Shown: one piece after another, positions 25,391-41,265 of the stretch
Numbering within the stretch: position 1 is the stretch's first letter
Layout of the letters: each line of letters begins with the position of its first letter
DNA from: Kofleriaceae bacterium
GTDB lineage: Bacteria > Myxococcota_A > Polyangia > Haliangiales > Haliangiaceae
Direction of reading: 5' to 3'
Assembly: GCA_048500355.1 (NCBI GenBank)
Contig: JASNYD010000006.1
Span: 608,211-665,094 of the forward strand
DNA: 56,884 bases
Program-made: the position numbers and the translations under genes
Notes under the pieces: generated by a model
What the model was told of the DNA's origin: nothing
Databases searched by the model: none
Seen by the model: only the letters and a program-made list of their open reading frames with translations

Positions 25391-25774
25391 TCAGCCGGCC
25401 GTGGCCGCGATCAGCGCCAGCACCCGCGCCCGCAGCGCCTGCGGCGCCCACGGCTTGGCGATGACCTCGTCGACGACACCGGCGGCCTGGGCCGCGACCA
25501 GGGTCGGCTCGTCGTCGAAGCCGGTCACGACCACGACCCGCAGCCGGGGCCAGCGCGCGCGCGCGGCCCGGGCCAGCTCGACCCCGGTCGGCCGCCCCAG
25601 GGCCAGGTCGCTGACCAGGGCGTCGGCCGGCCAGCGCTCGAGCACCGCCAGGGCCTCGGTGGCGTCGGCGGCGGCCACCACCTCGGCGGCGCGGGCGAAG
25701 GTCCGCACCATCAGGTCGCGGTTGTACAGCTCGTCGTCGACGACCAGGATGCGCGGCGGCGGACCGTCAGCCAC
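25391..25774 (-). CDS. Response regulator receiver (CheY-like, stand-alone REC)
   Basis: [13 protein letters not shown].....ALVSDLALG...VVVVTGF....KPW has the receiver Asp and Lys positions. It overlaps the 3' end of the upstream HK gene by 8 nt. Confidence 0.85.
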
Positions 25775-27137
25775 CGCCGACCTCGTCGCCGAGGCCCGCT
25801 GCCCGTGATCCTGGCGCGACCGCGAGCGGCGCCGGGGCCTCGACCCGCGGCCGCTCCGCCGCGCCGTCGCTCGGGCCGCGCACCGGGATCGTGACCACGA
25901 ACTCGGCGCCAGCGCCGGCGCGGTTGGCCCAGCGCAAGGAGCCGCCGTGGGCGCGCACGATGTTGGCGCAGATCCACAGCCCGAGGCCGGTGCCCTCGCC
26001 GACCTCCTTGGTGGTGAAGAACGGATCCGAGATCTTCTCCATCAGGTCGGGCTTGATGCCGGGCCCCGAGTCACAGATGGTGACGCGGATCGCCGCCCCG
26101 TCGTCGACGGTCTCGATCGCGACGTCGATCCACCCGGTGCCGGCGATGGCCTGGGCGGCGTTGGTCAGGATGTTCATGAACACCTGGTTGACGTGGCCGG
26201 CGTTGCACAGCACCCGCGGCACGCCGGGCGCGATCCGGCGCCGGACCTCGACCCGGTTCTTGAGCAGGGGCCCGATCAGGTTGAGCGTGGTGTCGATGCC
26301 GCCGACGATGTCGGTCTCGGCCAGCTCGTTACCCCCGGTGCGCGCGAAGCTCTTGAGATCGGCGACGATGTCGGCGGTGCGCTCGGCGCCGGCCCGGATC
26401 GACCGCAGGAGCTTGCGCCAGTCGGCGACCAGGAAGTCGAGCTCGACCTCGGCCTTGAGCGCGTCGAGCGCGGCCCGCAGCTCGGGCGGCAGCGCCGCGC
26501 CATCGACCAGCGCCACCAGCCGCAGCAGGTCCTCCATGTACTGGCCGAGGAAGTCGACGTTGCCGTAGACGAAGTTGATCGGGTTGTTGAGCTCGTGGGC
26601 GATGCCGGCCACCAGCCGGCCCAGCGACGACATCTTCTCCTGGTGGACGAGCTGGGCCTGGGCCGCGCGCAGCTCGTCGGTGCGCTCCCGCACCTTCTCC
26701 TCGAGGTCGCCCTTGGCCCGCCGCTCGTGCTCGAGCGCGACCTTGAGCCGGCGCTGGATGCGGACGTCGGCGGTGACGTCGCGGTAGGTCTCGACCACCA
26801 CCGCCTCGCCGTCGTCGAGCTCGACCGGGGCCGCGGTCACGATGAAGGTGAGGTCCTCGCCGTCGCCGCGGCGGGCGCCGATCTCGTCGACCCGAAGCCG
26901 CCGCCCGACCTCGCGCACCTTGCAGCCCAGGCACGCCTGCTCGCAGATCTCGAGCTTGAACAGCTCGTGGCAGCGGGCCCCGGCCTTGACCTTCTCGGCG
27001 AGCTGGCGCCCGCGCAGGCCGGTCAGCGCCTCGTAGGCCTGGTTGTAGTGGAGCACCCGACGCTCGGCGTCGAGGACGACGGCGGCGTCGACGCTGCCAT
27101 CGAGGAGCTGGGTGATCTGGTGGAACAGCTTGGCCAA
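25767..27137 (-). CDS. PAS-domain sensor histidine kinase (cytoplasmic), with a 4-Cys PAS
   Basis: H-box: [21 protein letters not shown]-box: [16 protein letters not shown]-boxes: DSGPGI and GTGLGL. The N-terminal PAS carries C-x8-C-x3-C-x2-C ([19 protein letters not shown]). The ORF-track start is TTG at 27137 (see the PAS 4-Cys finding). Confidence 0.9.
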
Positions 27138-27186
27138 GCGGGGGGCTCGGGGGGCGGAGCGCGGGATGGTGCCGGATCGGTCCGGA

Positions 27187-27684
27187 TCAGGCCTCCGCCA
27201 GGAACGACAGGTAGCGCTCGGGCAGGTCGTCGAACTCCATGGTCGCGCCGCACTGCGAGCAGGCGAACTGCGGGATCTCGTGCTTGCCGCCGGTCTGCGT
27301 GACGTCGACCAGCTTCTCCTCCTCCTGGCCGCAGCGGTCGCACACGTAGGGCGCGAAGAAGGAGCGGATGCGAGCGTTGCCGCGGAAGTTGTAGATCATG
27401 TTGAGCTGGGTCACGATCGCCGGCGAGCAGTGCGAGAACGACAGCTCGGTGACGTGGGGCAGATCGCGGACGAAGTTGACCCACTCGCGCACGCCGCAGC
27501 TGTTGATGCGGCGGACCTCGCCGAGCTGGAACGCCACGGCGCCGCGCAGCCGCCGCCGCAGCTCGACGAAGTCGGCGTTCTCGTCGATCTCCCCCACGAA
27601 CTCGACGGTGGTCAGGCCGGGGCGTTCGCGGATGCGCCACGACAGCGCGACCGGCTCGGGCCCCCGCACGTCCGCCGTCGCCAT
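27187..27684 (-). CDS. STAS-like (anti-sigma-antagonist fold) domain fused to a C-terminal C4 zinc ribbon
   Basis: GGAGTGAGG RBS. STAS-like core: ...[15 protein letters not shown]...[22 protein letters not shown]...[15 protein letters not shown]. Zinc ribbon: CDRCG...CSQCG. It is a paralogue of 33748..34695. Confidence 0.7.
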
Positions 27685-27688
27685 CGCC

Positions 27689-28612
27689 TCACTCCATCCG
27701 CTCGGGCGACTTCTCGAAGTGCTGGCGGACCTCGGTCCGCGCCGCCTCGTCGAGCGACGCCGGCTCGATCAGCACGTCCTTGACGTCGAAGCGCACCGGC
27801 TCGGGGCTGGCGAAGACGCCGCGCTTGACGACGCGGCCCATGCGCCCGGCGAGGCCCTGGTAGGCGGCCTTCGACGGCGAGGCCCAGCCCGAGATCGCGC
27901 CGCCGCCGCCGAAGCGGGTCACCGCGGTCCCGACCGAGGCGACCGTCGCCGCCGGCACCTTGGCGTTGACCTGGACGAAGGCGGGGTTGGGCACCGCGCC
28001 GGTGTCGAACAGCTTGGCCAGGCCCTTCTGCGAGCCGATGGGCGCGAACACCGCCTGCGCGCCCTTGTACGACGCGACCTCGGCGACCGCGGCCGTCAGG
28101 TCGGGCTTGCCGACCCGGCTGGCGAAGAAGCCGGCGTCGACCTCGGACTCGAGCATGGCGTTGTCGACGAAGCCGTTGTCGTTGCAGCCGGTCTGCACGA
28201 ACGCCAGCTTCTTGCCCTCGAGCGCCTTCATGTCGCCGCCGGCGCCCGAGAACAGGGCGTAGGTGCGGGCGCCGCTGCCGCCGATCTGGGCGTTGGCCAG
28301 CAGGTTCCAGCCCAGGTTGGTGGCGTAGCACTGGGCGTCGACGATCGCGAAGTCGACGCCGGCGCTCTTGAGGGCGCCGAACGAGGCGAACGACTTGGCC
28401 TCGGTCTTGACCCCGGTCTGGGCCTCGATCGCCTTGGCCAGGCCCTGGACGTAGGACAGGCGGTCCTGGGCGGTGCCGAACTCGACCGACGGCGCGTAGA
28501 TGCCGATCACCAGCTTGCCGGGCGCCGGCTGGGTGGTGCCGGGACGGACCACCAGGGCGACGGCCAGGGCGACCAGGCAGAGCGTCGGGATGATGATGCT
28601 GAGCTTGCGCAT
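27689..28612 (-). CDS. Periplasmic substrate-binding-like protein (PhnD/SsuA-type fold) with signal peptide
   Basis: AGGAG RBS. Signal [22 protein letters not shown]. Its stop is 4 nt from the next gene start. Confidence 0.7.
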
Positions 28613-28631
28613 GGTGTGCTCCTGGGTGCCG

Positions 28632-31283
28632 CTAGTAGCCGTAGATCCGCTTCTTGGCGTCGATCCACTTCTGGAGATCGCGCGCGCCGGCGACCCGGCC
28701 CGACGCCGAGCGCCAGGCCTCGTAGGCGTCCTTGGGCCGCCCCGCCTGGTCGTAGAGGATGCCGAGGTTGACCAGCGCCTCGGGCGGCTGGCCGCGCAGC
28801 GCCTCGAGGGCGCCGATCTTGCTCTTGTCGAGCGACAGCACCGCGCGGTTGTTGACCAGGCGACGCTTGGCGTCGTCGCTGGCGAAGCGCTCGGCGCTGT
28901 CGAGGGCCTTGGCCGCGGGCCCGGTGCGGCCGTTGCGCCAGTGGTCGAACGCGACGTACTCCCACGACGACGCGATCAGGTCGCGGACCTTGGTGCTGAA
29001 GGCGCCGGTGGCGCTGCCGAGCAGGCGGGTGAAGGTCGCGGCCGCTCGTTCGCGCAGGGTGGCGTTGTTCGAGCGGTAGTCGGCGTAGGCGCCGAAGAAC
29101 TCGGTGCCGACCTTGGCGTAGGGCGCCTTGAGGTACGCGGCCTGGTTGCCCTTGGCGGCGAGCTGCTTGAAGTACTTGCCGGCCTCGGCGGTGTCGCCCT
29201 TCTCGAGCAGGGCCAGGGCGTAGCTGAACTCGAAGGCCGCTGGCTCGGTGCCCTTGAGCAGCGAGGGCTCGCGGGTCGCGCGCTCCAGGTCGGCCACCGC
29301 CTCCGCGTCCTTGCCGGCCTTGATCGCCCGCCAGCCGCGGCGGAACAGGGCGAGGGCGAGGTTGCGCTTGGCCGCGGGCGCCACCTCCGGCGACTGGGCG
29401 GCGAAGCCCACGGCGATGCCGAGCTTCTCGACCGCCTCGTCGAGCTTGGTGTCGACCAGCAGCGGCGCCCACTCGGTGTAGATCTCGGCCTTCATCAGGT
29501 TCGCCTGGTTCTTGGTGGCCTCCTCGTCGGCCTCCGCGAAGTGCTGGGCGGCCCGCGCCTTGTCGGGCTTCTTCGCGCACAGGTGGGCGCGGCCGGCCAG
29601 GCGGTTGTAGAGCATGGAGTAGCCGCGGCGGTTGTCCTTGATGCGGTCGAGGTAGCGCAGCCCGCCGTCGCAGTCGCCGCGGTCGATGGCCAGGACCGCC
29701 AGGTTGAGCGCGACCATCGGCGAGCGGTCGTCGACCTTGAGCGCCTCCTCGAGGAAGGCGGCCGCGGTCTTGCCGTCACCCTTGGTGAAGGCGCCGGCGG
29801 CCTGGGCGTTGATGGTCTCGACGAGCGCGCGCCGGATCTGCAGCTCCCTGGGTCGCAGGGCCACCGCGGCCTCGAAGCGCTGGCGCGCCACCACCAGCTT
29901 GCCCTGGTTGTACTGGGCCTTGGCGCTGACCAGGTAGAGCTCGGCGGCGAGCTCGGGCGGCGCGCTGGCGAACGCCTTGCCGGCGATGAGCTGGTCGGCG
30001 GTCTTGGCGGCGTCGCCGTCGCGCCGGGCCGCCAGGTAGGCGCCGCCGAGCTCGATGCCGAGGTCGAAGCTCGACGGGTCGAGCTGGCGGCCGGCCTCGA
30101 GCTTCTCGATGGCCAGCGCCAGGTTGGTGTTCTGGGCGCCGGTCGACGGCATGCGGCGGTAGGTCTTGCCCAGCCGCACGCTGAGCTCGCTGGCGCCCGC
30201 GCCGCCGCGCATGAGCTTCTCCGCCTGCAGGTAGGCCGCCAGGGCCTGGCCCCAGTCGCGCTCCTGGAAGTAGGCGTCGCCGATGAGGATGTAGCCGCGG
30301 GGCTCGTTCTTGCGCTTCTTCAGGTACTCGTTGGCGGCCTGCCGCGCCCGCTGCGGCAGCTTCTTGGCCAGGTACGCCGAGCCGAGGTTGAAGTAGACCG
30401 AGCCGTTGCTGTCGATGTTGCGCGGGTTGCCCTGCAGGCGCTCGCACACGGTGATGGCCTGGTCGAACTTGCGCAGGCCGGTGTAGGCGGCGCACAGTCC
30501 GATGTCGGCGTTGGGCTGGGCGTACTGGGCCTTGCCGTGCTTGCGGACGACGGTCTCGAACTCCTTGACCGCGCGCTCGTAGTCCCGGTTGGCGGCGTCG
30601 TGCTGGCTCTCGCGCACCGCCATGCGGCCGCGCGCCAGGTACGAGAAGCCGAGCCGGATGCGGGGCAGGACGTCGCGGCTCTCGCGATCGGCGGGCCGCG
30701 CCGCCAGGTACGCCTCGTAGGCGGTGATCGTCTTCAGCGGATCGCGGTTGAAGTAGAACTCGCCCAGGATCTGCTGGTTGGAGAACAGCGAGGCCCGCTT
30801 GGCCACCGCCTTCTCGGCGACCGCGACCGCGCCCGGCTTGTCGCCGGTCGCCCACAGGAGCAGCGCCTCCTGCTCGAGGACCTCGGCGGCCTCGGGGTGG
30901 GTGCGCTTGGCCACGGTGCGGATGAACTCGAGCCCGCCCTTGTAGTCGGCCTGGATGATGAAGATCGCCGCCCGCTTGCCGTAGGCCTCGGGCGGGACCT
31001 GGGTCGGGGCCGAGCGGATGGCCGAGTCGAAGGCCGCGGCGGCGCGTCGCCAGTTGGCCTCCTCGAAGTAGCGATCGCCCTCCTTCAGGTCCTCGGCCAC
31101 GTCGGCGACGGCGGTGCCGGCGGCGAGGAGGACGAGCACGAGCCCGAGGGCGGCGGCCCAGGTGCGGGCCAGGCCGCGCGTGGCGCAGGACGTTCGCGTT
31201 GGTTCGTTCACGGGTTCCTCGTTCACGGGTTCCTCCACGGGGGCCGTCGCGGCCCGGGCCTGCCAGCGCTCAGCGTTGCGCAC
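28632..31283 (-). CDS. Secreted TPR-repeat protein (~880 aa); start uncertain (GTG at 31283 or downstream GTG giving MNEPTRTS...)
   Basis: Signal/TM ARTWAAALGLVLVLLAAGTAVADVA. Many TPR-like units follow. A 15-bp tandem duplication (EEPVNEEPVNE) sits at the 5' end. Confidence 0.8.
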   Translation of the reverse strand: MRNAERWQARAATAPVEEPVNEEPVNEPTRTSCATRGLARTWAAALGLVLVLLAAGTAVADVAEDLKEGDRYFEEANWRRAAAAFDSAIRSAPTQVPPEAYGKRAAIFIIQADYKGGLEFIRTVAKRTHPEAAEVLEQEALLLWATGDKPGAVAVAEKAVAKRASLFSNQQILGEFYFNRDPLKTITAYEAYLAARPADRESRDVLPRIRLGFSYLARGRMAVRESQHDAANRDYERAVKEFETVVRKHGKAQYAQPNADIGLCAAYTGLRKFDQAITVCERLQGNPRNIDSNGSVYFNLGSAYLAKKLPQRARQAANEYLKKRKNEPRGYILIGDAYFQERDWGQALAAYLQAEKLMRGGAGASELSVRLGKTYRRMPSTGAQNTNLALAIEKLEAGRQLDPSSFDLGIELGGAYLAARRDGDAAKTADQLIAGKAFASAPPELAAELYLVSAKAQYNQGKLVVARQRFEAAVALRPRELQIRRALVETINAQAAGAFTKGDGKTAAAFLEEALKVDDRSPMVALNLAVLAIDRGDCDGGLRYLDRIKDNRRGYSMLYNRLAGRAHLCAKKPDKARAAQHFAEADEEATKNQANLMKAEIYTEWAPLLVDTKLDEAVEKLGIAVGFAAQSPEVAPAAKRNLALALFRRGWRAIKAGKDAEAVADLERATREPSLLKGTEPAAFEFSYALALLEKGDTAEAGKYFKQLAAKGNQAAYLKAPYAKVGTEFFGAYADYRSNNATLRERAAATFTRLLGSATGAFSTKVRDLIASSWEYVAFDHWRNGRTGPAAKALDSAERFASDDAKRRLVNNRAVLSLDKSKIGALEALRGQPPEALVNLGILYDQAGRPKDAYEAWRSASGRVAGARDLQKWIDAKKRIYGY

Positions 31284-31299
31284 CGGTGCTCGCCGGTGC

Positions 31300-32988
31300 T
31301 CAGAAGACCTTGCCGATGACGAGCGTGATGTCGTCCTTGCGGATGTTGTCGCCGAAGAAGTTGGCGGCGTCGGTCACGACGGCGTCGCGGATCTCCCCGG
31401 CCTCGAGCGCGGCCGCCCGCCGCACCGAGGCCCGGAAGCGCTTCTCGCCGTACTCCTCGCCGCCGCTCGACTCGCACTCGACGATGCCGTCCGTGTACCA
31501 GACCAGGATGTCGCCGGGCATGAGCTCGGTGGTCTTGACCTCGTACTTCGACTCCTTGAGGTCGCCGAGCCGGTTGCCGCGGATCATCAGCGAGCCGAAC
31601 TCGCCCTGCCCGCCCTCCGAGGTCCGGTACAGGTAGGGGAAGTTGTGGCCGGCGTTGGCGTACGTGATCGTGCGCCGGCGGGTGTCGATGACCGAGGCGA
31701 AGCAGGTCATCACGAACTTGCGCTTGGCGCTCTGGTAGATCGCCGAGTTCATGATCTCGAGCAGCTTGGCCGGGTCGACGTTGTCGCCGTTGACGGCGCG
31801 GGCGACGTCGCACGCCGCCTTGGCCGCCGCCGTGATCATCGCCGACGGCACGCCGTGGCCGGTGACGTCGCCGATCACGACCAGGACCTTGTCGCCGACC
31901 ATGTCGTGCCACGTCCACCAGTCGCCGCCGCACTGCGACGCCGGCTGGAAGTAGCCGGCGAAGCGCAGCGTGCCCTTGTCGACCGGATCGTGGGTCGGCA
32001 CCAGGGTCTCCTGGATCGTCCGCGCCACCTCGAGCTCCTTCTCCATCGTCGCCTTCTCGGCGGTCTGCTGGAGCAGCACGAGGAGCTGGTCGGCCATGAA
32101 GTTGAAGTTCTCGCCGAGCAGGCCGAGCTCGTCGGTCGACTTGACCTCGACGCGGGCGGCCAGATCACCGCGGGCGATCTGGTCGGCCTTCCACGCCAGG
32201 AGCTTGATGGGCTTGGAGATCTGGACGCCCTGGAAGATCGCGAGCAGGGTGCCGATGAGCACGAACAGCGCGCCGAAGGCGCCGGTGCGTAGCGCGGCCT
32301 TGCGCGCCTCCTCGTCCTTGAGCTTGGCGCTCTCGCGGGCGAAGGTGTCGACCGGCGACAGGTCGTAGCCGAAGACCACGTAGCCCTGACGGTTCTCGCC
32401 CGGGTCGTCGGCCGCGGCGGCGGCCGGGCTCCAGCCGACCTGCTCGCCCGAGAACACCGGGTAGGCGAACAACAGCAGCTTGCCGTCCTCGCCGGCGGTC
32501 CAGTCGAGCGAGACGCTGATCTCGGGCTCGGTCGCGGCGGCGCGCCGCTTCCACTCCTCCAGCACCTTGGCCCACGACGCGTGCTTGACCCGCTCGCCCT
32601 CGACCTCGCCGGCGGCGTCGCAGCGGTCGTCCTTGCGCCGGCAGTACTTGATGAGGTTCTGGACGCGACCGACGACGTAGACCAGCTTGAGCTCGGCGTC
32701 GTGCTTGAGGGTGTCGTCGACGATCTCCTTGATCTCGACGTCCTGGGTGTTGATGAAGTACGAGCGCAGGCCCTGGCCGAAGAAGATCGTGTTGGTCTCG
32801 CCCTTGCTCTCGAGCTGCTTGCGGTACTCGGTGATCTTGTCCTTGGCCGCGCGATCGTAGGCCTCGCGGATGTTGCACGCGTTCAGCAGACCGAAGCCCA
32901 CCACCGTGAGGAGGATCAGGAACGTGGTGGTCAAGATCATCTTGACCGAGATGCTCAAGCCGCCGCGCTTTGCCATTGGCCATGCCAT
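31300..32988 (-). CDS. Membrane sensor PP2C-family protein phosphatase (SpoIIE/RsbU-like) with HAMP domain
   Basis: N-terminal TM, an extracytoplasmic region and a second TM ([17 protein letters not shown]), then HAMP ([43 protein letters not shown]), then PP2C motifs (GGDWW...[14 protein letters not shown]...YANAGH...WYTDG). Confidence 0.85.
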
Positions 32989-33158: not shown

Positions 33159-33725
33159 ATGCCGGGGATGGAGTCCCACCCCGCGCTGACCCAGTTCCTG
33201 ACCGAGTTCAAGCGCGTGGCCAGCGCCATCGTCGACAGCTACTTCATCGTCGACACCGAGCGCCGCATCGTCGACTTCAACCGCGCGTTCTTCGCGATGC
33301 TGCCGCGGCAGGTGGCGCGCGGCCTCAAGGGCAAGCGCTGCTTCGAGGTCATCGAGCTCAACATCTGCCGCAGCGAGTGCATCGCCCAGCAGTGCTGGAC
33401 CGACAACCGACACGTCCGGCTCGACGAGATCAGCGGCAAGGTGCTGGGCGAGCCCGACGCCAAGGAGCTGCGCTTCATCCTGTCGGCGGTGCCGATCACC
33501 GACGAGAGCGGCCAGCACGTCGGCGCCCTCGAGATCCAGCGCAACGTCACCGACGAGGCGGTGGTCCAGGTCAAGTACCAGGAGATGCTCGAGAACGAGG
33601 CCCGCGAGCGCGAGCGCCTCGCCAACCAGATCCGCGCCCGCACCAAGGAGCTGCTCGAGACCAACCAGCTCCTGCTCAAGACCCAGAAGGAGCTCCTGTC
33701 CTACAAGAAGGGCCTCTCGGCCTGA
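33159..33725 (+). CDS. Stand-alone PAS-domain protein with 4-Cys motif and C-terminal coiled coil
   Basis: It is homologous to the N-terminal PAS of the kinase at 25767..27137 ([15 protein letters not shown] versus [15 protein letters not shown]). The Cys motif is [21 protein letters not shown]. The start may be ATG 33159 or 33168. Confidence 0.65.
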
Positions 33726-33747: not shown

Positions 33748-34695
33748 CTACTTGCCGCTGAAGAGCAGGAACGCCAGCACGCCGATGGCCGCGAGCAGCA
33801 CGACCACGAGCACGTAGATCACGGCGCTCGACTTGGGCTGGGTCAGCGCCGGGCGCTCGGCGGGGACCGGCGTGGAGAAGCTGCCGCTGCCGGGGTTGGT
33901 GCCGGGCGAGGTGAAGTTGCCCGGCCGGCTGCCCGGGTTGGTGCCCTGGAACGAGCCCACCGGGCGCATGCCGGGGTGGGTGGTGGTCGTCACCGGCGTC
34001 ATCGACGGCCGGCTGCCCGGCTTGGCGGTGATCGACGGCGAGCTGCCGCTGGGCCGCGAGATCGACGGCAAGGACGGCACGCTGGGCAACGACGACACCG
34101 ACGAGCTGTGCAGGCTCGAGGTGCCGGTGCGCGAGCGGATCTTGGACTTCTCGCCGTTGTCACCGGAGGCGAACTCCTTGATGACGCCGTTGATCTTGTC
34201 GGGCTCGGCGATCTTCTTCTGGTTCGACAGGAACGCGAAGTACGAGTCGGCCATGTCGTCGAAGTCCATGACCAGATCGCACTCGTCGCAGCGACAGGTC
34301 GGCGGCTCGTGCGGCCCCGAGCCCATGTCGGCCGCCTCGACGAGCAGCACCTTCTCCTCGTCGCACTCGGGACAGAAGTACGGGACGTAGAAGCTCTTGA
34401 CCACGCCCGACCCGGTGAAGTTGTTGACGAGGTTGATCTGGGCGACGATCGCCGGCGAGCACTCGACGAGCACCGCGCGGGTCGCCTGGGTCTCGAGCTT
34501 GCCGAGCCAGTTGACCCAGTCGCGCACGCCACACGAGTTGATGCGCTCGATCTCGCCGAGATCGATCACCGCCGTACCCGCCGGGATCTTGTCGGTCAGC
34601 GCGGTGAGCTCGTTGTCCTCGTCGATGACACCGCTCAGCTTGACGTAGCTGACGTCGTCGCGGTGGTGGACCGACGCCTGAAACTTCTGGCTCAT
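33748..34695 (-). CDS. STAS-like plus C4 zinc-ribbon protein with Ser/Pro-rich linker and C-terminal TM anchor; paralogue of 27187..27684
   Basis: GGAGACG RBS. Shared motifs with the paralogue: [38 protein letters not shown]...[15 protein letters not shown]-terminal TM: [22 protein letters not shown]. Confidence 0.7.
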
Positions 34696-34833: not shown

Positions 34834-37800
34834 TCACGCCTGGTTCGGGGCAGCGGTGAGGTAGTCGCGTAGGCGCTGGTAGTCGTCGGACAGATAGAAG
34901 CGCACCAGGTCGGCCCCGCCCAGCACCGCGCCCAGGGCCACGGTGGCGTCGTGAGACAGGAGCATCTCGCCGGTCAGGCGCGCGATCATCCAGGTGGCGG
35001 CGGCGAAGTCGTCGCAGGCGAGGAGCCCGCCGCGCTTGGCGGCGCCCAGCATGCCGTCGATCCAGGCGTCGCCGTCGACGTCGCGGCCCCAGTTCTGGTG
35101 GCGCTCGATGACCTTCTGCGCCCGCTTGGACAGCCCCTTCACGAACTCGTTGGTCGGCGCCGGCCGCTCGCCCTCGGGCAGCAGCAGCGACTTCATGAAG
35201 TTGCCGAGCTCGGATCGCTGGCGACGGCCGAGGTGGTGGAGGAAGGCGTACCCGCCCCGCAGCGCCTCGAAGGCCCAGCCGAGGAGGAAGCGGCGCGGCC
35301 CGTCGCCCTCGCCGACCAGCGACCGGTCGATCACCACCAGGCGGCGGGGCGCCGCCACCAGCGCCACCAGGCCGGGCACGCGCTCGCCCACGAAGACCTC
35401 GGCCTCGATGGCGTCGAGCCGGGCGATGTCGGCGACCGCGACCTTGAGCCCGGGGTCGTCCATGCCCTGTACCGGGATCAGGTTCTCCCCCAGCATCGGC
35501 GGCGGGTACAGGCCGCCCAGCTCGGCCGCGGCCGCCGCCAGCACCTCGCCGAACGGATCGCGCGCCGCCGTCGTCACCAGCAGCCGCATCCGCATCTCGT
35601 CGTCGAGCGCCCGCCGCATCGGGTGGTAGGGCAACGACGCCCGCACCTTGGCGGCGGCGCCGCGATCGGACTCCTCGGCGAAGCCGAGCTGCTCCATCAC
35701 CGTCAGCGCCCGCGCCGCCCGCTCCGGCTCGCCGACGCGGGTGTAGTACGACGACAGGAGGCGGTAGGCCATCGCGTTGTGGATGTCGCGATCCACGACC
35801 TTGCGCAGCTCCGAGATCGCCTTGCCCGGGTCGTCGATGGCGTAGATCTCGGCCAGCGCCACACGATCGGGCGGGCTGTCGTCGACGCCCAGGATGCCGC
35901 GGTAGGCCTCGATCGCCGCCGGCCGGTCGCCGGACGCGAGGAGGATGCGGGCCAGGCCGCGCTGCAGCGGCACCGCCGCCGGCGGCCCGCCCTTCTCCAT
36001 CGCGGCGTGGGCGGCGTCGATGAGCAGGCCCTCGGCGCCGCGCTGGTCGCCGGCCTCGGCGGCGCGCCGCGCCAGGGCCAGGGCCGGCGGCGCGTAGCCC
36101 GGATCGTACTCGCTGGCCCGGCGGTACTGCGAGGTCGCGCCGCGAGGATCGCCCGAGGTCTCGGTGATGCGCCCGCGGTAGTAGTAGTAGCGGGCCAGGT
36201 TCTCGGGCGAGATCGCCGAGCCCGGCGCCGCCGCCAGCTCGATCACGCGATCGATCGCCGCCCGGGCGTCGGCGTGGCGCCCCAGCAGGTAGTGCTCCTG
36301 GGCCAGGCGGTAGTAGGCCTCCTCGTGGATCGGGTCGATGCGGATGACCTCGCGCAGGACCGAGATCGCGCGGTGGGGCTCCATCTCGCAGTCGGCGTGG
36401 ATCTCGGCCTGCCGCATGAGCGCGCCGACGCGCACCGCCTGCGACACGTCGCTGTGGTTCAGGAACTTGACGATGGCGTCGACCGCGTGGCTCCACCGCC
36501 GCATGTTGAGGTGGAGCGTGATCATCGCCGACAGCACCTCGAAGTCGTCGGGCGCCAGCGCCACCGCCTCGGCGTAGAGCTGCTGGGCCTGATCGAGGTC
36601 GCCCTCGCGCTCCTTCATGCCGGCCTGGGCGACGCGGACCCGGGCCAGGAAGGGCCCGGCGTCGTCGCGCTTCTTGTAGAGCTTGTCGAGCTCGCGGTAG
36701 ATCGCGTCGAAGTCCCAGGCCTCGGGGTGCTTGCGCTGCAGGTCGAGCAGGCCGTCGAGGGCCGACAGGTTGTTGGGCTTGATCTCGAGGGCGACGATCA
36801 GGCTCTCGGCGGCGCCGCGGGCGTCGCCGGTCATGTGGGCGACCACGCCGCGCCGGCGATAGAACTCGCTGCGGGTGTTGGGATCGCCCTCGCGCATGGC
36901 CTTGACCGCCAGCGCCTGGGCCAGGGGCAGCGCCCGCTGCCACTCCCCGGCGTCGAAGTAGTGCTCGAACAGGGCCTGGTTGGCGGGCAGGCACTCGGGA
37001 TCGACGGCGAGCGCGCTCTCGTAGTAGTGCATCGCCCGGTCGGGCTGGCCGAGGCGCGACTCGTAGATGCGGCCGATCTGGGCGAAGACGCCGGCCCGCT
37101 CCTTGTCGTCCTGCCACAGCTTGACCTCGAGCTCGAGGGTCTGGATGACCCGCGGCCAGTCCTCGCGCCGGCGGTAGAGGTCGCGCAGGCCGTGGACCGC
37201 CGGCAGGCACGAGGGCGAGGTCTTGATCGCCGCGTCGTAGTAGCGGATCGCGTCCTCCTCCTTGCCGAACTTGGCCTCCATCACCGAGCCGCACTTGAAG
37301 TAGAGCAGCGCCTTGAGGTTGCGATCGGTGGTGACCCGGATCTGGCGGCGGGTGACGTCGACGAACTCGGCCCACTGCTCCGTCGACTCGTAGATGCGGC
37401 CCAGGGCCTCGAGCGCCTCCTTGTTGGCGGGCGCGATCTCGAGGATGCGCTGGTAGTGCTCGACCGCGCGCGACTCGTCGCGCAGGCCCTCCTCGCTGAT
37501 CTGGGCGATGCGCTTGTGCAGGGTGGTCGCGGCGTCGCCGGCGGGGGCGGTGGCCAGGCGGTGGCGCAGGACCTCGACCAGCTTGCCCCAGTCGTGGTTG
37601 CGCTCGTACCAGCGCTCGAGCGCGTCGAGGGCCTCGACGTCGGACGGATCGATGTCGAGGATGTGCTGGTAGAGGCGGGCGGCCTCGCCGAAGTCGCGCA
37701 TCTTGGCGGCGGCGACCCGGGCGGCGCGGCGCAGCGACTCGAGGCGGCGCTCGTCGTCGCGGGTCAGGCCGGCCCGCTTCTCGTAGACCCCGATGAGCCC

Positions 37801-40800
37801 GCTCCAGTCGCTCTTCTGCGAGAAGATCGACTCCAGGAACTTCACGCTGGTGTCGTTCTCGGGATCGATCTCGACGACCTTGACGTAGGACTGGGCCGCG
37901 GCGTCGAGCTCCCCCAGGTACTGGAGCTGGACCTGGCCGCGGCGGGCGTAGAGGTCGCCCAGGCGGTAGGCCCGCGACGCGCCGCTCTCCACCAGGTCGA
38001 TCGCGCTCTGGTAGAGCTTCATCGCCGACGCCCAGCGCTCGTGCTTGTAGCAGAGCTTCTCGAGCGAGGTGAAGACCTCGCGGTTGGCGGGGTCGGCGAG
38101 GAACGACGCGGTGAAGGCGGCGATCGCGCCGTCGGGGTCGCCGCGGTTCTGCTTGACCTGGGCGATGCGCCCGTAGAGCTGGGCCCGCTCCAGCTTGTCG
38201 ATCGTCGAGTCGGCGCGGGCCTCCAGCACCCGCATCAGATCCTTGTCGCGGCCGAGCCGCTCGTACAGCCGCTCGAGGGCCTCGAGCGCAGGCACGTACT
38301 GGGGGCGGCGCTCGAGGATCGACTCGTAGGCGAGCGCGGCGTCGGCGGGCTTGGCCAGCTTCTCCTCGCGGAGCTGGCCGAGCCGGGTCAGGATCGCGAG
38401 CTGGGCGTCGACGTTGCCCGCCGGCGCCGCCGCCAGCTCGCGCTCGAGCGCGCCGGCCAGGTCGGCCCAGCGCTCGGTGCGCTCGAGCAGCCGGGTCAGG
38501 TCGCGGTGGCTGTCGGTGCTGGCGCTGCCCTGGGCCGCGAGCTGGTGGAAGCGGATCGCGGTCTCGACGTCGCCGAGCTTGTCCTCGGCCATGCGCGCCA
38601 GCGACGCCGCCAGCCGCGGCCGCTCGGCGGCCGGGGTCAGCTCGATCTCGGCCTGCCGGATCTCGGCCAGCTCGGTCCACTCGCCCAGGCGCTCGAGGGC
38701 CTCGGCCAGGACCCGCAGGTTGGCCAGGGTCCGCGGCGCGCGCCGGTAGGCGATCGCCAGCTCGCGCCAGCGATCGTGGCCGCGGGCGACGCGGTCGACC
38801 CCGGCCAGGGCGGCGGCGTCGGCGGCGTCGATCGAGAGCGCGTCGTCGTAGGCGGCGAGCGCCCGCTCGGGGTCGCGCCCGTCCTCGTACAGCTTGCCGG
38901 CCTCGAGCTGGATGGCGAGGCGCCGCGACGGCTCGACGCCGCGGGTCAGCTCCTGCTCGAGCAGCGCCAGCAGGCGATCGTTGCGGCGGGCCCGGCGGTG
39001 GAGCTGCTGCAGGGCGCGCAGCGGCTCGACGGCGCGATCGTCGGCGCGCGCGGCGCGCTCGTAGGCGGCCAGGGCCGCGGCGTCGTCGTTGCGCCGGGTC
39101 TCCTCGAGCTGGCCGATCTCCAGGTACATCTGGGCCTGGCGGCGGACGTCCTTGACCAGCTCGGCGACGCGGGCCCGTAGCTCGATCGCCTTGTCCCATT
39201 GCCGGCCGTGCTCGCACAGCCGCGCCAGCTCGTAGGTGACGTCGGGGTCGTCGGGCCGCAGGGTCTGGGCCTGCTCGAGCACGGCGCGGGCGCGCCGGGT
39301 GTCGCTGATGTGCTCGGCCAGGATCTTGCCGTGCTCGCGCAGGAGCACCAGCTTGAGCTCCTCGGAGGTGCACAGCGCGGTGAGATCGGACAGCGTGCTC
39401 GACAGCTCGCGCCAGCGCTCGGCCTTGCGGTAGATCGCGGCCAGCGCGCCCTTGGCCGCGGGATCCTGCGGCGCCTGGCGCGAGGCCTGGAGAAGGAGCT
39501 CCTCCGCCTCCAGCGGCCGGGCGCGCGCGAGCTCGAGGGCGCCGGCGGCGAACAGGAGCGCGGTGGCGGCGCGGCGGTCGCGGGCCGACTGCGCCGCCGC
39601 CCGGTAGATCTCGCCGAGCTGGGCGCGGTCGCGCTGGCGACGGGCGAGGCGCGCGAGGTGGTCGAGCTCGCTCTGGCGCGCCGGACCGGGAGCGCGCTCC
39701 GACGACGCGACCTTGAGCAGCTCGAGGGCGCGGGCGACGTCGCCCAGCCGGGCCTCGATGACCAGCGCCGCCCGCCGGTTGCCGGCCCGGGCGCCGTCCT
39801 TGGCCTGGGCCAGGAGGTGGCCGACCAGGGCCTCGGGCTCGCCGGCGCGCAGGCGCTCGAGCGTGAGCAGGCCGCTGGCCGTCCGGGCACCGGACGTCGC
39901 GAGCTGGGCCAGCTCGCCGGCCATGGCCAGCCCGTGGGCGTCGGCGATCTCGAGGGCGCGCCAGGCGTGGGCCGCGGACAGGCCGCCGGCGGCCTGCGAC
40001 TCGGCGAGGCCACGGCGCGCGGTCACGGCGTCGCCCCAGCGGCTGGCGCGGTGGCCGACCCGGGCCATGGCCAGCCGCGCCAGCACCGGGCCGTAGCCCT
40101 CGTCGCCGGCGGCCGAGGCGTAGCCGGAGACCGCGGCGCCCAGGTCGCCGGCGGCGAGCCGGGCGTCGGCGAGGGCGTGGCGGGTGGCGGCCTCCTCGCG
40201 GCGGGCCCCGGCGTCGGCCTCGAGCAGCTCGAGGCGGCGCTCGTGCAGCGCGGCCACGGCCGCGACGTCGGCGCCCCCGGGCAGGCGCTGGGCGGCGTCG
40301 AGGGCGAGGTCGATCGCGCGCAGCCAGTGCACCGGCGCGCCGCGGCCGCGCTCGGGGCGGGCCAGGGCGGCCTGGACGATGGCGAGGGCGCCGGCGGCGT
40401 CGCCGAGGCGGTCGAGCCGCACGGCGGCCGCGTCGCACGCGTCCTCGGGCAACGCGCCGGGCGCCGCCGCCGCCGCCGCCAGCGCGGTCGCCAGCTCGCC
40501 CCACTGCCCGGCGCCGGCGCGGGCCAGGGTGCCGAGCGCGCGCATCTCGGCCGCGATCTCGGGGTCACCGCTGACCTCGCCGCCGGCGGACGCCACCACC
40601 GCCGCCGCCCGGACCGGATCGCCGAGCGAGTACAGCCAGGCCTCGACCAGGTCCCGGGTGAGGTGGGCGCGCTCGCGGGCATCGGCGAGCGCGCCGATCA
40701 TGCGGCCCGCGGTCTCGAGCGCCTTGGGATCGGGCGCGGCGATGCCGTGCGACACCAGGAGGCGGGCCGCCAGCGGGTGCTTCTCGGCCAGCTCGAGGTA

Positions 40801-41265
40801 GCGGGCGGCGTCCTCGGGATCGTCGAGGATGTCGGCGGTGATGAGCGAGAGCCGGACGTTGATGTCGGCGAGCCGCTCGTCGGCCTCGGCGCCGCCGCTG
40901 AGGAGCGCCTCGGCCTCCGCCGCGAGCAGCTCGACCACCGAGTCGATCAGCGCCGCCGAGCCCGCGCCCATCACCCGCCGGGTCAGGTCGCCGGTCGAGT
41001 CGTCGTCGGGCGGCGGCTCGGCCGCGGCCCGCGGCGGCGGCGGCGCAGGCGCGGGCGGCGCGACCACCGCGGCCGGGGCCGGGGTCCCGGTCGCCGGCGG
41101 CGCCACGCGCGGCGGCGCGGGCGGGACGGGCAACGACGGCAGCGCCCCCTCGGCGGTGCGTCGAGGCAGCGCCGGCAGCGGTGGCGGCCGCGGCGGGCGG
41201 TCACCCGAGGGGGGTTCGGCCATCGCAAGTATCGTATCAGTGGTCCTCTCCGCTTCGCCACTCAC
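34834..41265 (-). CDS. Giant TPR-repeat protein (2143 aa), Pro-rich N-terminus
   Basis: One uninterrupted ORF with high third-position GC. The N-terminal ~100 aa are Pro/Ala-rich and precede tens of TPR-like helical hairpins. It is divergent from 41400..42338. Confidence 0.85.
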   Translation of the reverse strand: MSGEAERTTDTILAMAEPPSGDRPPRPPPLPALPRRTAEGALPSLPVPPAPPRVAPPATGTPAPAAVVAPPAPAPPPPRAAAEPPPDDDSTGDLTRRVMGAGSAALIDSVVELLAAEAEALLSGGAEADERLADINVRLSLITADILDDPEDAARYLELAEKHPLAARLLVSHGIAAPDPKALETAGRMIGALADARERAHLTRDLVEAWLYSLGDPVRAAAVVASAGGEVSGDPEIAAEMRALGTLARAGAGQWGELATALAAAAAAPGALPEDACDAAAVRLDRLGDAAGALAIVQAALARPERGRGAPVHWLRAIDLALDAAQRLPGGADVAAVAALHERRLELLEADAGARREEAATRHALADARLAAGDLGAAVSGYASAAGDEGYGPVLARLAMARVGHRASRWGDAVTARRGLAESQAAGGLSAAHAWRALEIADAHGLAMAGELAQLATSGARTASGLLTLERLRAGEPEALVGHLLAQAKDGARAGNRRAALVIEARLGDVARALELLKVASSERAPGPARQSELDHLARLARRQRDRAQLGEIYRAAAQSARDRRAATALLFAAGALELARARPLEAEELLLQASRQAPQDPAAKGALAAIYRKAERWRELSSTLSDLTALCTSEELKLVLLREHGKILAEHISDTRRARAVLEQAQTLRPDDPDVTYELARLCEHGRQWDKAIELRARVAELVKDVRRQAQMYLEIGQLEETRRNDDAAALAAYERAARADDRAVEPLRALQQLHRRARRNDRLLALLEQELTRGVEPSRRLAIQLEAGKLYEDGRDPERALAAYDDALSIDAADAAALAGVDRVARGHDRWRELAIAYRRAPRTLANLRVLAEALERLGEWTELAEIRQAEIELTPAAERPRLAASLARMAEDKLGDVETAIRFHQLAAQGSASTDSHRDLTRLLERTERWADLAGALERELAAAPAGNVDAQLAILTRLGQLREEKLAKPADAALAYESILERRPQYVPALEALERLYERLGRDKDLMRVLEARADSTIDKLERAQLYGRIAQVKQNRGDPDGAIAAFTASFLADPANREVFTSLEKLCYKHERWASAMKLYQSAIDLVESGASRAYRLGDLYARRGQVQLQYLGELDAAAQSYVKVVEIDPENDTSVKFLESIFSQKSDWSGLIGVYEKRAGLTRDDERRLESLRRAARVAAAKMRDFGEAARLYQHILDIDPSDVEALDALERWYERNHDWGKLVEVLRHRLATAPAGDAATTLHKRIAQISEEGLRDESRAVEHYQRILEIAPANKEALEALGRIYESTEQWAEFVDVTRRQIRVTTDRNLKALLYFKCGSVMEAKFGKEEDAIRYYDAAIKTSPSCLPAVHGLRDLYRRREDWPRVIQTLELEVKLWQDDKERAGVFAQIGRIYESRLGQPDRAMHYYESALAVDPECLPANQALFEHYFDAGEWQRALPLAQALAVKAMREGDPNTRSEFYRRRGVVAHMTGDARGAAESLIVALEIKPNNLSALDGLLDLQRKHPEAWDFDAIYRELDKLYKKRDDAGPFLARVRVAQAGMKEREGDLDQAQQLYAEAVALAPDDFEVLSAMITLHLNMRRWSHAVDAIVKFLNHSDVSQAVRVGALMRQAEIHADCEMEPHRAISVLREVIRIDPIHEEAYYRLAQEHYLLGRHADARAAIDRVIELAAAPGSAISPENLARYYYYRGRITETSGDPRGATSQYRRASEYDPGYAPPALALARRAAEAGDQRGAEGLLIDAAHAAMEKGGPPAAVPLQRGLARILLASGDRPAAIEAYRGILGVDDSPPDRVALAEIYAIDDPGKAISELRKVVDRDIHNAMAYRLLSSYYTRVGEPERAARALTVMEQLGFAEESDRGAAAKVRASLPYHPMRRALDDEMRMRLLVTTAARDPFGEVLAAAAAELGGLYPPPMLGENLIPVQGMDDPGLKVAVADIARLDAIEAEVFVGERVPGLVALVAAPRRLVVIDRSLVGEGDGPRRFLLGWAFEALRGGYAFLHHLGRRQRSELGNFMKSLLLPEGERPAPTNEFVKGLSKRAQKVIERHQNWGRDVDGDAWIDGMLGAAKRGGLLACDDFAAATWMIARLTGEMLLSHDATVALGAVLGGADLVRFYLSDDYQRLRDYLTAAPNQA

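Follow-up and report, generated by a model that had tools for sequence, protein, structure and literature searches.

Tri-cysteine PAS domains of a Kofleriaceae bacterium related to the iron-sulfur sensor domain of OrpR

Two proteins encoded in the window (the whole stretch of 56,884 nucleotides of Kofleriaceae DNA that was analysed), one a histidine kinase and the other a small stand-alone protein, each carry a PAS domain with a C-x8-C-x3-C cysteine triad, and sequence comparison identifies OrpR, not NreB, as the closest characterised relative of both domains. By analogy, we consider it reasonably likely that these are PAS domains of the OrpR type, in which the triad holds an iron-sulfur (Fe-S) cluster in the PAS pocket. 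The kinase and the stand-alone protein probably belong, as members not described before, to a class of redox sensors that is known but has received very little study. The original prediction of a candidate Fe-S or metal redox-sensing PAS thus gains support from homology to a PAS domain that was experimentally shown to bind a redox-sensitive [4Fe-4S] cluster.

The two tri-cysteine PAS proteins

The sensor histidine kinase (456 aa) is encoded on the minus strand at 25767..27137 and consists of an N-cap helix, the tri-Cys PAS domain, a long signalling helix, HisKA and HATPase_c. Pfam matches were obtained for HATPase_c (6.9e-23), HisKA (7e-9) and PAS_4 (1.1e-7), and the HisKA histidine is His181, located in the sequence AHELNNP. 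The PAS domain covers residues 12-124 (26766..27104, minus strand). In the AlphaFold2 model a continuous helix of residues 122-174 (26616..26774, minus strand; pLDDT 90-97) leads from the PAS I-beta strand to the DHp domain, and R119-D120-V121-T122 is presumably the 'DIT'-type junction known from PAS-kinase linkers.

The stop codon of the kinase gene is overlapped by 8 nt by the gene of a 127-aa single-domain response regulator (25391..25774, minus strand; Pfam Response_reg 1.7e-17). The same arrangement of kinase and response regulator was found in loci L127-L129, and the regulator is presumed to be the cognate partner of the kinase.

The kinase open reading frame begins with TTG at 27137, the earliest start codon available, and no Shine-Dalgarno sequence was found before it, which is why this 5' end had been flagged for checking. 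The TTG start is supported by several lines of evidence: an orthologue in locus L126, 65% identical to the kinase, has a TTG start too, at the corresponding residue and 4 nt past the upstream stop; the start position is shared by the kinase orthologues; independent gene calls in other assemblies of the locus likewise give 456 aa; and residues 3-13 are modelled by AlphaFold2 as the PAS N-cap helix.

The second protein is a 'short' tri-Cys PAS protein encoded on the plus strand at 33168..33725. Started from the ATG at 33168 it has 185 aa, which is also the most frequent length among its homologues; from the ATG at 33159 it has 188 aa, as in gene calls elsewhere. An N-cap is followed by the PAS core and then by a C-terminal helix, with no output domain. 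Its PAS region matches Pfam PAS_9/PAS_4, and the matches of the two proteins to these PAS families lie at E values of 1e-7 to 1e-6. The PAS regions of the stand-alone protein and the kinase are 30% identical (BLASTP E 8e-25 over PAS and linker), and the C-terminal helix of the former aligns without gaps with the signalling helix of the latter.

The AlphaFold2 model of kinase residues 1-175 (pLDDT 92.8) has the canonical PAS topology, and according to its secondary structure the cysteine motif occupies E-alpha, the following loop and the N-terminus of F-alpha, on the side where PAS domains usually hold their cofactors. The best structural matches of the modelled PAS were short LOV proteins (Foldseek E ~5e-8, TM 0.68-0.75 normalised to target), such as PpSB1-LOV, PF5-LOV and SBW25-LOV, which share the layout of N-cap helix, PAS core and long C-terminal J-alpha helix and, like the 185-aa protein, lack an effector domain. 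However, short LOV proteins bind FMN and sense light, and their identity to the kinase PAS is just 21-24%. The LOV flavin-binding consensus around the photoactive cysteine is GXNCRFLQ; it is absent from both proteins, which have GARCHELF (kinase) and GKRCFEVI (stand-alone protein), and the pocket has the cysteine triad in place of the flavin consensus. The likeness of the modelled domain to LOV is structural alone.

Conservation of the cysteine motif

In the kinase the motif is C56-x8-C65-x3-C69-x2-C72 with Glu58 (26922..26972, minus strand), read from the sequence, the orthologue alignment and the census described below; the codons of Cys56, 65, 69 and 72, within a 24-residue stretch of the reading frame, run from 26972 to 26922, which falls in the interval 26900-27137 given in the original prediction. 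The stand-alone protein has C-x8-C-x3-C-x4-C at 33339..33395 (plus strand), within a stretch of 23 residues. Within the window, C-x8-C-x3-C occurs in real reading frames at these two places alone, and the four further six-frame matches are off-frame, in Arg/Ala-rich translations of DNA with 75% G+C.

The original prediction described a conserved four-cysteine motif, C-x8-C-x3-C-x(2-4)-C, that aligned position for position between the two proteins, and proposed an alignment of homologues as a check on the invariance of all four residues. The motif is indeed real in both proteins, and the first three cysteines do align, but the fourth does not: it lies at +3 from the third in the kinase and at +5 in the stand-alone protein, in a part of the BLASTP alignment that is free of gaps. 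Likewise, Cys56, Cys65 and Cys69 are invariant among intact kinase orthologues, whereas Cys72 is replaced (CIMRRA) in a clade of ~50%-identical kinases. For the stand-alone protein 811 homologues were found; the best 120 of these are all at least 82% identical to it and ~185 aa long, and 119 of them keep all four cysteines, while adjacent residues vary.

An exhaustive profile search over 1.84 billion representatives gave 3284 hits, with 398 proteins at E<=1e-10, and the census was made on the 140 domain matches that cover the motif among the best 150 of these 398. All three cysteines of the triad are present in 101 of the 140 domains and none in 32; the seven partial cases hold one or two, and several of them are frameshifted reads. 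Such all-or-none inheritance is the pattern expected of residues that build one joint site, and the conservation of the cysteines is far above chance expectation.

The fourth cysteine behaves differently. It is missing in 57 of the 101 triad-bearing domains, and a role as obligatory ligand is not supported; it also persists in 13 of the 32 triad-less relatives, so its inheritance is separate from that of the triad. What is conserved is a unit of three cysteines (C56/C65/C69 in the kinase), not four, and C72 is clade-specific. Attachment of heme c through C69-L-G-C72-K was rejected, since CXXCH is absent from this cytoplasmic protein and the residue itself is not a conserved one.

Both proteins have a glutamate two residues after the first cysteine (Glu58 in the kinase). 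An acidic residue at this position is found in 74 of 101 triad-bearing domains and is equally common in triad-less relatives (28 of 39, the partial cases included), and it is therefore uninformative on a cluster. Co-variation with the triad thus gives no support to a role as cluster ligand.

The outputs to which the tri-Cys PAS is joined include kinases and hybrid kinases, a CheA-like protein, GGDEF-EAL proteins, MCPs, a sigma-54 activator and a Ser/Thr kinase; such varied output fusions are to be expected for a modular input domain.

OrpR as the closest characterised relative

OrpR (DVU2106) of Desulfovibrio (Nitratidesulfovibrio) vulgaris Hildenborough belongs to the sigma-54 enhancer-binding proteins and has a PAS domain with a redox-sensitive [4Fe-4S] cluster, in which C52, C61 and C65 (C-x8-C-x3-C) as well as D/E54 are fully conserved (Fievet et al. 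2021, PMC8359166). As purified, OrpR is brown and gives no EPR signal, which fits [4Fe-4S]2+; with mild oxidants the cluster turns into [3Fe-4S]1+, air destroys it, and a triple Cys-to-Ser mutant has lost redox sensing (PMC8359166). The preparations contained just 0.3-0.5 cluster per chain, with the coordination unproven, and D/E54 was proposed as a possible cluster ligand (PMC8359166).

To obtain OrpR orthologues, genomes were scanned with the operator sequence published for OrpR; of the 120 loci obtained, 118 were chance matches and two (from Desulfovibrionaceae) the wanted ones. The Nitratidesulfovibrio orthologue is a sigma-54 activator 84 bp from the operator, adjoining genes for DUF5320 and ParA/MinD-ferredoxin proteins, and its residues C52, D54, C61, C65 and C70 agree exactly with the published OrpR numbering. 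Both orthologues (L057 and L035) have GAFTGA-type activator domains and lie beside DUF5320 and ParA-Fer4 genes.

Both window proteins can be aligned with the two orthologues along the entire PAS, at 26-31% identity and with the cysteines in register, and on this ground we read both proteins as putative OrpR-type Fe-S PAS sensors. The profile of the window family matches the orthologues at E values of 1e-5 to 1e-10 on the scale of 1.84 billion sequences, and orthologues with the cysteines substituted by alanine still score 42 bits and 26 bits. In a BLASTP search of the representatives with the OrpR PAS, all significant full-domain matches bear the triad, and they include members of both window families.

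The likeness extends to details of the domain. The OrpR triad C52/61/65 and the kinase triad C56/65/69 have the same spacing and a nearly equal distance from the N-terminus, the PAS is N-terminal in OrpR and the window proteins alike, and all have an acidic residue two positions after the first cysteine. The OrpR orthologues carry the +5 cysteine of the stand-alone protein, whose motif spacing is identical to their C52, C61, C65 and C70 (all four in register with both orthologues), whereas the extra cysteine of the kinase is at +3.

On the other hand, the output of OrpR is an AAA+ sigma-54 activator with an HTH, while the window proteins have a HisKA/HATPase kinase or no output at all, and OrpR comes from a strict anaerobe, the window from an aerobic myxobacterial lineage. 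Orthology of the window proteins with OrpR was rejected, as they have no AAA+ sigma-54 domain, no HTH_8 and no orp genes in the neighbourhood of either PAS gene. What they share with OrpR is the sensor domain only, and at a distance of 26-31% identity the type of cofactor can change.

Other readings of the triad

Among the alternatives, binding of Zn2+ or another thiophilic metal by the triad, with or without the fourth cysteine, survives best, although we regard it as unlikely; such a site, structural or regulatory, would let the domain sense the availability of metal, or the oxidation of thiols by way of released zinc. Short-spaced Cys3/Cys4 sites are typical of zinc, the aerobic host lineage favours sites that are stable to O2, and all-or-none inheritance of the triad suits any joint metal site equally well. 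WalK is, moreover, a known zinc-binding cytoplasmic PAS; its site, however, is reportedly built of His/Asp/Glu ligands, not Cys. What weighs against zinc is also that the sole characterised homologue with the exact motif, OrpR, binds Fe-S, and that more than half of the family has three cysteines only, which is less usual for structural zinc.

There is a smaller chance that the domain works without metal, as a thiol/disulfide (or sulfenic/persulfide) switch in which an intramolecular disulfide formed under oxidants, for example C65-C69 or C69-C72, would reshape F-alpha. Cysteines spaced C-x3-C and C-x2-C where a helix begins resemble redox-active dithiol motifs, and thiol-based switching is established for sensor kinases such as ArcB and RegB, which provide a precedent. 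A disulfide needs two cysteines, however, and strict co-conservation of three over 14 positions would be left unexplained, while in OrpR a cluster is associated with the same three residues.

A third reading, which we consider very improbable, makes the kinase an oxygen or sulfide sensor belonging to the NreB family. NreB, cited in the original prediction as an oxygen-sensing [4Fe-4S] PAS of differing spacing, has the motif C-x2-C-x11-C(-x2-C), and NreB proteins vary between [4Fe-4S] and [2Fe-2S]; that of B. licheniformis coordinates its cluster by three cysteines and a non-protein fourth ligand (PMC13478379). This three-cysteine cluster is a precedent for the many three-cysteine members of the window PAS family. 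NreB, the oxygen/sulfide sensor of Staphylococcus and Bacillus, is likewise a cytoplasmic PAS-histidine kinase, with the Fe-S cluster thought to sit on E-alpha/F-alpha cysteines.

The sole PDB sequence match of the kinase PAS was 9wex_A (E 0.02), which we take as the B. licheniformis NreB PAS because its aligned residues 11-79 carry the NreB-type C-x2-C-x11-C-Y-L-L-A. In this alignment C56 of the kinase pairs with C66 of NreB and C69 with C78, and C72 falls where S. carnosus NreB has its fourth cysteine. However, the window motif is C-x8-C-x3-C(-x2/x4-C), and that of NreB is absent from the kinase. Similarity to this solved PAS structure is marginal: apart from the match of the kinase, the family profile scores just 11.5 bits (E 1.8) with the 9wex PAS, in the generic N-terminal part only, and the stand-alone PAS gave no match to 9wex in the PDB sequence search.

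The NreBC system pairs a HisKA_3 kinase with a NarL/LuxR-type regulator (NreC), unlike the HisKA (PF00512) kinase and receiver-only, CheY-like partner of the window. Membership of the kinase in the NreB family was rejected on motif spacing, the lack of family-level similarity and the grouping of the window proteins with OrpR. The spacing does therefore differ from that of NreB, as had been noted, but NreB is not the closest known system.

That the cysteines are buried structural residues with no role in sensing, and the likeness to OrpR coincidental, is scarcely credible: although the +5 cysteine may be merely structural, as it is retained in relatives without the triad, the triad itself is invariant amid varying flanks, is inherited in an all-or-none manner over 140 domains and lies in a register identical to that of the triad functionally required in OrpR.

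Proposed mechanism

Returning to the OrpR-type reading, we infer a mechanism that covers cluster binding, cluster type, signal, direction of regulation and partners. The triad, presented by helix E-alpha, the loop that joins it to F-alpha and the beginning of F-alpha, would hold in the canonical PAS pocket a cluster that, by analogy with OrpR, is most likely [4Fe-4S]2+. The fourth ligand could be the nearby clade-specific cysteine (C72 or that at +5), a different residue, or a non-protein ligand open to exchange. On oxidation, or on contact with O2 or some other small molecule, the cluster would be converted or destroyed, and the resulting change in the PAS core would pass through the I-beta strand and the RDVT junction into helix 122-174 and on to the DHp domain. 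There it would switch autophosphorylation of His181 and, as a consequence, the phosphorylation state of the single-domain regulator encoded next to the kinase.

The 185-aa protein would be the same sensor and helix without the kinase, acting presumably through protein-protein contact; its candidate partners are the kinase, the zinc-ribbon STAS proteins and the PP2C phosphatase described below.

What speaks against this mechanism is that Kofleriaceae and Haliangium are known as aerobes, whereas OrpR is from a strict anaerobe. In air little of an O2-labile cluster would be left, unless the protein shields it or signals in its apo form.

A more far-reaching version of the proposal, which we put forward as doubtful, is that tri-Cys PAS domains form a large, modular and hardly studied family of Fe-S sensors with OrpR as the sole member examined. 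As most of them offer three protein ligands, their cluster would carry an exchangeable fourth ligand, like that of the unrelated three-cysteine NreB, and would sense a small molecule (sulfide, NO or O2) instead of bulk redox. In aerobic Kofleriaceae the near-invariant 185-aa form would then be a diffusible sensor that gates both the kinase and the STAS/PP2C proteins.

Genomic neighbourhood

Immediately upstream of the kinase gene lies that of a 165-aa protein with a STAS domain and a zinc ribbon (27187..27684, minus strand; AlphaFold2 pLDDT 82), which is 100% identical to the Kofleriaceae MAG protein HS111_33760. Pfam and PDB sequence searches gave no clear match to STAS, and the fold was settled by the predicted structure alone: the top Foldseek matches were 4hyl, SpoIIAA and RsbV, which are anti-sigma-factor antagonists (probability 1.00). 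The STAS fold of the partner STAS-ZnR proteins named in the original prediction is in this way confirmed by model and structural search, and the zinc-ribbon Pfam matches are sub-threshold.

A second STAS and zinc-ribbon protein (315 aa; 33748..34695, minus strand) is 38% identical to the first, with a weak STAS_2 match, a Ser/Pro-rich linker and a C-terminal hydrophobic anchor. Its gene is convergent with the stand-alone PAS gene, and its orthologue also adjoins a PAS gene in locus L126.

The invariant residues of the 165-aa protein are S62-C63-G64, C86 and C115/C118/C142/C145. The redox theme suggested earlier on account of the cysteine-rich STAS proteins is weak, as four of their six invariant cysteines form an ordinary CxxC...CxxC zinc ribbon.

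The stand-alone PAS gene is divergent from that of a membrane HAMP-PP2C (SpoIIE-type) phosphatase (31300..32988, minus strand; Pfam SpoIIE 2.8e-42, HAMP 7.1e-14), which is present in the related cluster L125 and absent in L126. It is the probable partner-switching phosphatase for the STAS proteins. Between the phosphatase gene and the STAS-kinase pair (27689..31283) sit the genes of a 307-aa secreted protein of no known family (27689-28612, minus strand), which has no Pfam match, and of an 883-aa TPR protein with Pfam TPR matches (28632-31283, minus strand). The conserved cluster is headed by the gene of a giant TPR protein of 2143 aa (34834..41265, minus strand), and its place is taken in L125, L126 and L127 by genes of TPR proteins with 1517-2099 aa.

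The arrangement TPR / STAS-ZnR / PAS / STAS-ZnR / kinase recurs in L125 and L126. Synteny of the stand-alone PAS gene is not universal, however, since in L001-L004 a 90%-identical PAS copy is surrounded by genes for pseudopilins and polysaccharide export and adjoins that of an unrelated lipoprotein.

The cluster resembles the partner-switching modules of SpoIIAA/RsbV-type STAS proteins and PP2C (SpoIIE/RsbU) phosphatases in its STAS folds and in encoding a HAMP-SpoIIE phosphatase. The STAS domains of SpoIIAA/RsbV modules have the phosphorylatable motif D-S-[ST]-G, where the window STAS proteins have an invariant N-S-C-G, and, unlike SpoIIAA/RsbV, the latter continue into a zinc ribbon at the C-terminus. 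The cluster encodes neither an anti-sigma kinase of the RsbW/SpoIIAB type nor a sigma factor. The STAS and PP2C proteins may be linked to the PAS proteins, with conserved gene neighbourhood as the sole basis for this suggestion.

Significance

Two kinds of Fe-S PAS sensors have been characterised so far, NreB and OrpR, and in the literature surveyed OrpR stood as a lone, anaerobe-specific case; in other work on Fe-S PAS proteins (PexR, PdtaS, HydS) the motif is unrelated. Our comparisons show the OrpR-type triad to be the hallmark of a wide family of input domains which extends to aerobic myxobacteria. Among the best 150 matches alone, its carriers fall into at least about 100 clusters at 50% identity and are annotated merely as 'PAS domain protein'.

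If cluster binding is true, the genes of this family would gain a concrete predicted signal, and C-x8-C-x(3-5)-C in E-alpha/F-alpha would serve as a rule by which Fe-S PAS sensors could be annotated. In that case, the short protein of 185 aa would also lend itself well to a first structure of the cluster site.

Cysteine motif and its conservation

The histidine kinase of the window (456 aa; 25767-27137, minus strand) is composed of a PAS_4 domain (Pfam, residues 12-124) followed by HisKA and HATPase_c, and its translation contains the motif KAGARC56HELFKLEIC65EQAC69LGC72KV, with the cysteine codons at 26972-26922. Among the genuine reading frames of the window, the C-x8-C-x3-C pattern is confined to this kinase and to a stand-alone PAS protein recognized by Pfam and translation (185 aa; 33168-33725, plus strand; 188 aa from an alternative ATG at 33159). 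The kinase PAS and the helix following it share 30% identity with their stand-alone equivalents (BLASTP E 8e-25); the C-terminal helix of the shorter protein aligns without gaps to the kinase signalling helix and ends just short of the H-box position. In the original prediction the four cysteines of both proteins were aligned position for position, which the BLASTP alignment bears out for the first three, but not for the fourth, placed two residues off.

The TTG start of the kinase, which had also been questioned, is upheld. It is the earliest start codon in the ORF, and TTG is likewise used at the corresponding residue, 4 nt past the stop of the upstream gene, by an orthologue of 65% identity from a Haliangium MAG (locus L126). 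The start position is identical in further orthologues, the 456-aa product was called independently on other assemblies of the locus, and residues 3-13 form a confidently predicted PAS N-cap helix (AlphaFold2).

A word-index search returned 15 kinase orthologues. C56, C65 and C69 are invariant among the intact ones, while C72 is limited to the closer clade (at least 65% identity), the clade of ~50% identity having CIMRRA instead. For the stand-alone PAS, 811 homologues were found; the best 120 listed are 82-93% identical and ~185 aa long, and 119 of these retain all four cysteines amid variable neighbouring residues. Conservation of this protein is unusually high and extends to an almost invariant tail at the C-terminus (LL.YKKGL, possibly a docking motif) in the same best 120 of 811.

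An exhaustive search of 1.84 billion representatives with a profile of both families (A2) yielded 3284 proteins at E<=1e-3 (398 at E<=1e-10). In the 140 domain hits that span the motif, taken from the best 150 proteins, all three core cysteines occur in 101, none in 32, and one or two in 7, several of the last being obvious frameshifted reads. The predicted four-cysteine motif, tested by this alignment of homologues, is therefore conserved as a triad, C-x8-C-x(3-5)-C, which is the jointly inherited unit, but 57 of the 101 triad domains have no further cysteine nearby; in the others it lies five (30), three (10) or two (4) residues after the third. The +5 cysteine is retained in 13 of the 32 triad-less relatives. 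Judging from these alignments, the fourth cysteine is optional and evolves independently of the triad.

Eight paralogues of the short PAS protein (~180 aa) lack the triad (P0147, P0161, P0170, P0180, P0184, P0193, P0201 and P0215). All core cysteines are gone from them, but their overall sequence is preserved, as are the RxDE motif following F-alpha and, in many cases, a single +5 cysteine, so that they resemble naturally occurring 'apo' forms of the sensor.

Relationship to OrpR

OrpR (DVU2106), from Desulfovibrio vulgaris Hildenborough, begins with a PAS domain in which C52, C61 and C65 (C-x8-C-x3-C) are fully conserved, along with D/E54. The purified protein is brown and EPR-silent, which fits a [4Fe-4S]2+ cluster; this becomes [3Fe-4S]1+ after mild oxidants and is destroyed by air, and redox control is lost both on deletion of the PAS domain and in the triple Cys-to-Ser mutant (PMC8359166).

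OrpR orthologues were located through their published operator, GGGCGYRTTTTGCGCCC, for which the genome collection was scanned. Two of the 120 loci returned were from Desulfovibrionaceae, each with a sigma-54 activator beside the operator. The Nitratidesulfovibrio activator (MALPRDIS...GRRC52RD54VFHSSIC61DGAC65VLRAC70) matches the published numbering exactly and adjoins DUF5320 and two ParA/MinD-ferredoxin genes, as would be expected in an orp cluster. Over the whole domain, the PAS of these orthologues is 26-28% identical to that of the kinase (pairwise E 2e-9 and 1e-13) and 29-31% identical to the stand-alone PAS (E 2e-12 and 1e-14; four of four cysteines in register). With A2 they score 41 and 57 bits (E 1.5e-5 and 1.9e-10, scaled to the 1.84-billion library), against at most 18 bits for any PAS of known structure.

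With the cysteines changed to alanine, the orthologues still scored 42 and 26 bits. When the OrpR PAS was compared with the representatives by BLASTP, every significant full-domain match carried the triad; the matches included a Desulfobulbaceae sigma-54 activator (54-56% identity), chemoreceptor PAS domains (33-44%) and representatives of both window families. These two controls argue for a real family relationship, and on this sequence evidence the sensor domain is common to OrpR and both window proteins. Orthology to OrpR itself was rejected, as the outputs differ: a sigma-54 activator in OrpR, and a HisKA/HATPase_c kinase or no output domain in the window.

Elsewhere, the triad PAS is fused to HisKA kinases, hybrid kinases, a Hpt-HATPase (CheA-like) protein, GGDEF-EAL, chemoreceptors, a Ser/Thr protein kinase and sigma-54 activators. 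Chemoreceptors P0186 and P0249 contain four or five PAS domains in tandem, each with the variant motif C-x8-C-x4-C-x-C (KCYDLFKTxHCKTxKCAC), a pattern that suggests arrays of candidate cluster-binding sensors in one receptor. Where named, triad-PAS proteins are annotated in the source only as 'PAS domain S-box protein', and our literature search found the family described nowhere beyond OrpR.

Genomic neighbourhood

The kinase gene is overlapped by that of a single-domain response regulator (25391-25774, minus strand) and preceded by that of a 165-aa protein (27187-27684, minus strand) with a STAS domain and a C-terminal CxxC...CxxC zinc ribbon, whose predicted structure matches the anti-sigma-factor antagonists 4hyl, SpoIIAA and RsbV. 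Farther upstream, the same strand encodes a secreted protein of 307 aa (27689-28612), a TPR protein of 883 aa and a phosphatase of the HAMP-SpoIIE (PP2C) type. The stand-alone PAS gene comes next, in the opposite orientation, and past it lie genes for a second, membrane-anchored STAS-ZnR protein (33748-34695, minus strand) and a 2143-aa TPR protein. The 307-aa protein has an N-terminal signal-like hydrophobic segment and is unmatched in Pfam up to E 10; in additional assemblies of the locus its gene keeps its position between the TPR gene and the STAS-kinase pair.

The STAS-ribbon architecture is unrecognised by Pfam. Across 121 homologues S62-C63-G64, C86 and the four ribbon cysteines are invariant, S62-C63-G64 standing where SpoIIAA/RsbV have their phosphorylatable D-S-[ST]-G loop. 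Neither an RsbW-type kinase nor a sigma factor is encoded near the STAS-ZnR genes, whereas the HAMP-SpoIIE phosphatase is.

The order TPR, STAS-ZnR, PAS (opposite strand), STAS-ZnR, kinase is repeated in L126 and, phosphatase included, in locus L125. Since a 90% identical copy of the stand-alone PAS also occurs in an unrelated neighbourhood, its linkage to the cluster is suggestive, not obligatory.

In L125 (ENA contig_34618, 906,940 bp) the kinase, phosphatase and TPR genes are fragmented and the cysteine region of the kinase (P0013) is frameshifted, which looks like long-read indel errors and not pseudogenes. The best matches of the window are Kofleriaceae and Haliangium (Myxococcota) MAGs, one neighbour protein being 100% identical to HS111_33760 of a Kofleriaceae MAG. 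The G+C content is ~75% overall, and 68-71.5% over the signalling cluster (26000-38000) versus 75-79% in most flanking DNA. A gene for an RND efflux pump (ACR_tran, 1020 aa; 22286-25348, plus strand) closely follows the response regulator gene in convergent orientation and is adjoined by membrane-fusion, outer-membrane-factor and TetR genes (seen in L127, the same locus); a connection between these genes and the sensor cluster is improbable.

Predicted structure and proposed function

The AlphaFold2 model of kinase residues 1-175 (pLDDT 92.8) comprises the N-cap helix (3-13), strands 18-22 and 27-31, helices 33-39, 43-51 and 56-59, a loop (60-69), helix 70-77 and strands 81-89, 95-106 and 112-120. 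C56 starts helix 56-59, C65 and C69 lie on the loop, and C72 is within helix 70-77. An unbroken helix (122-174) runs toward the H-box (His181), continuously joining the PAS I-beta strand (R119-D120-V121-T122) to the DHp domain.

Beyond the established fold, triad and its inheritance, OrpR homology and continuous PAS-DHp helix, we consider it fairly probable, by analogy with OrpR, that the triads of the kinase and the stand-alone PAS are Fe-S sensor sites. The original observation is genuine, and its main idea, a cysteine-based Fe-S or metal redox PAS, seems right, with the motif restated as a three-cysteine, OrpR-type one. The main grounds for caution are that identity to OrpR is modest, that a fourth ligand is not defined and that the host lineage is aerobic. 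A site for zinc or another metal at the same triad is a much less probable reading, and a metal-free thiol switch a slightly weaker one still.

The comparison originally drawn with NreB should give way to OrpR, given the motif spacing and the lack of family-level similarity. NreB has the motif C-x2-C-x11-C(-x2-C), and the 2026 structure of the B. licheniformis protein contains [2Fe-2S] held by three cysteines and a labile sulfur ligand (PMC13478379). The sole PDB sequence match of the kinase PAS, a marginal one (E 0.02), is 9wex_A, a 132-aa 'Sensor histidine kinase' taken to be this NreB PAS by the C-x2-C-x11-C-Y-L-L-A motif in its aligned part. Kinase C56 stands opposite C66 and C69 opposite C78, so that two of three ligand cysteines coincide, a hint that sites of the NreB and OrpR types have equivalent locations in the fold. 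The match of the family profile to 9wex_A, however, is restricted to the generic N-terminal portion (11.5 bits), and the stand-alone PAS does not match this chain at all, so that membership of the kinase in the NreB family is very improbable; NreB is a functional analogue on the same fold side, not the parent family. A purely structural role of the cysteines is the least credible of all.

If the triad is an OrpR-type Fe-S site, it would most likely hold [4Fe-4S]2+. Remodelling of E-alpha/F-alpha would follow when the cluster is oxidised or when a ligand is lost or exchanged, and the change could pass via the beta-sheet and then the helix to set the kinase/phosphatase balance toward the CheY-like regulator. 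The 185-aa protein shares the layout of short LOV proteins, a sensor and helix without a kinase, and probably signals through partner binding; judged by neighbourhood only, its candidate partners are the kinase, the phosphatase and the STAS proteins.

The window proteins are newly recognised members, with new output contexts, of a kind of sensor that is known and scarcely explored. The finding would gain in interest if the cluster were confirmed biochemically, above all with an exchangeable fourth ligand.
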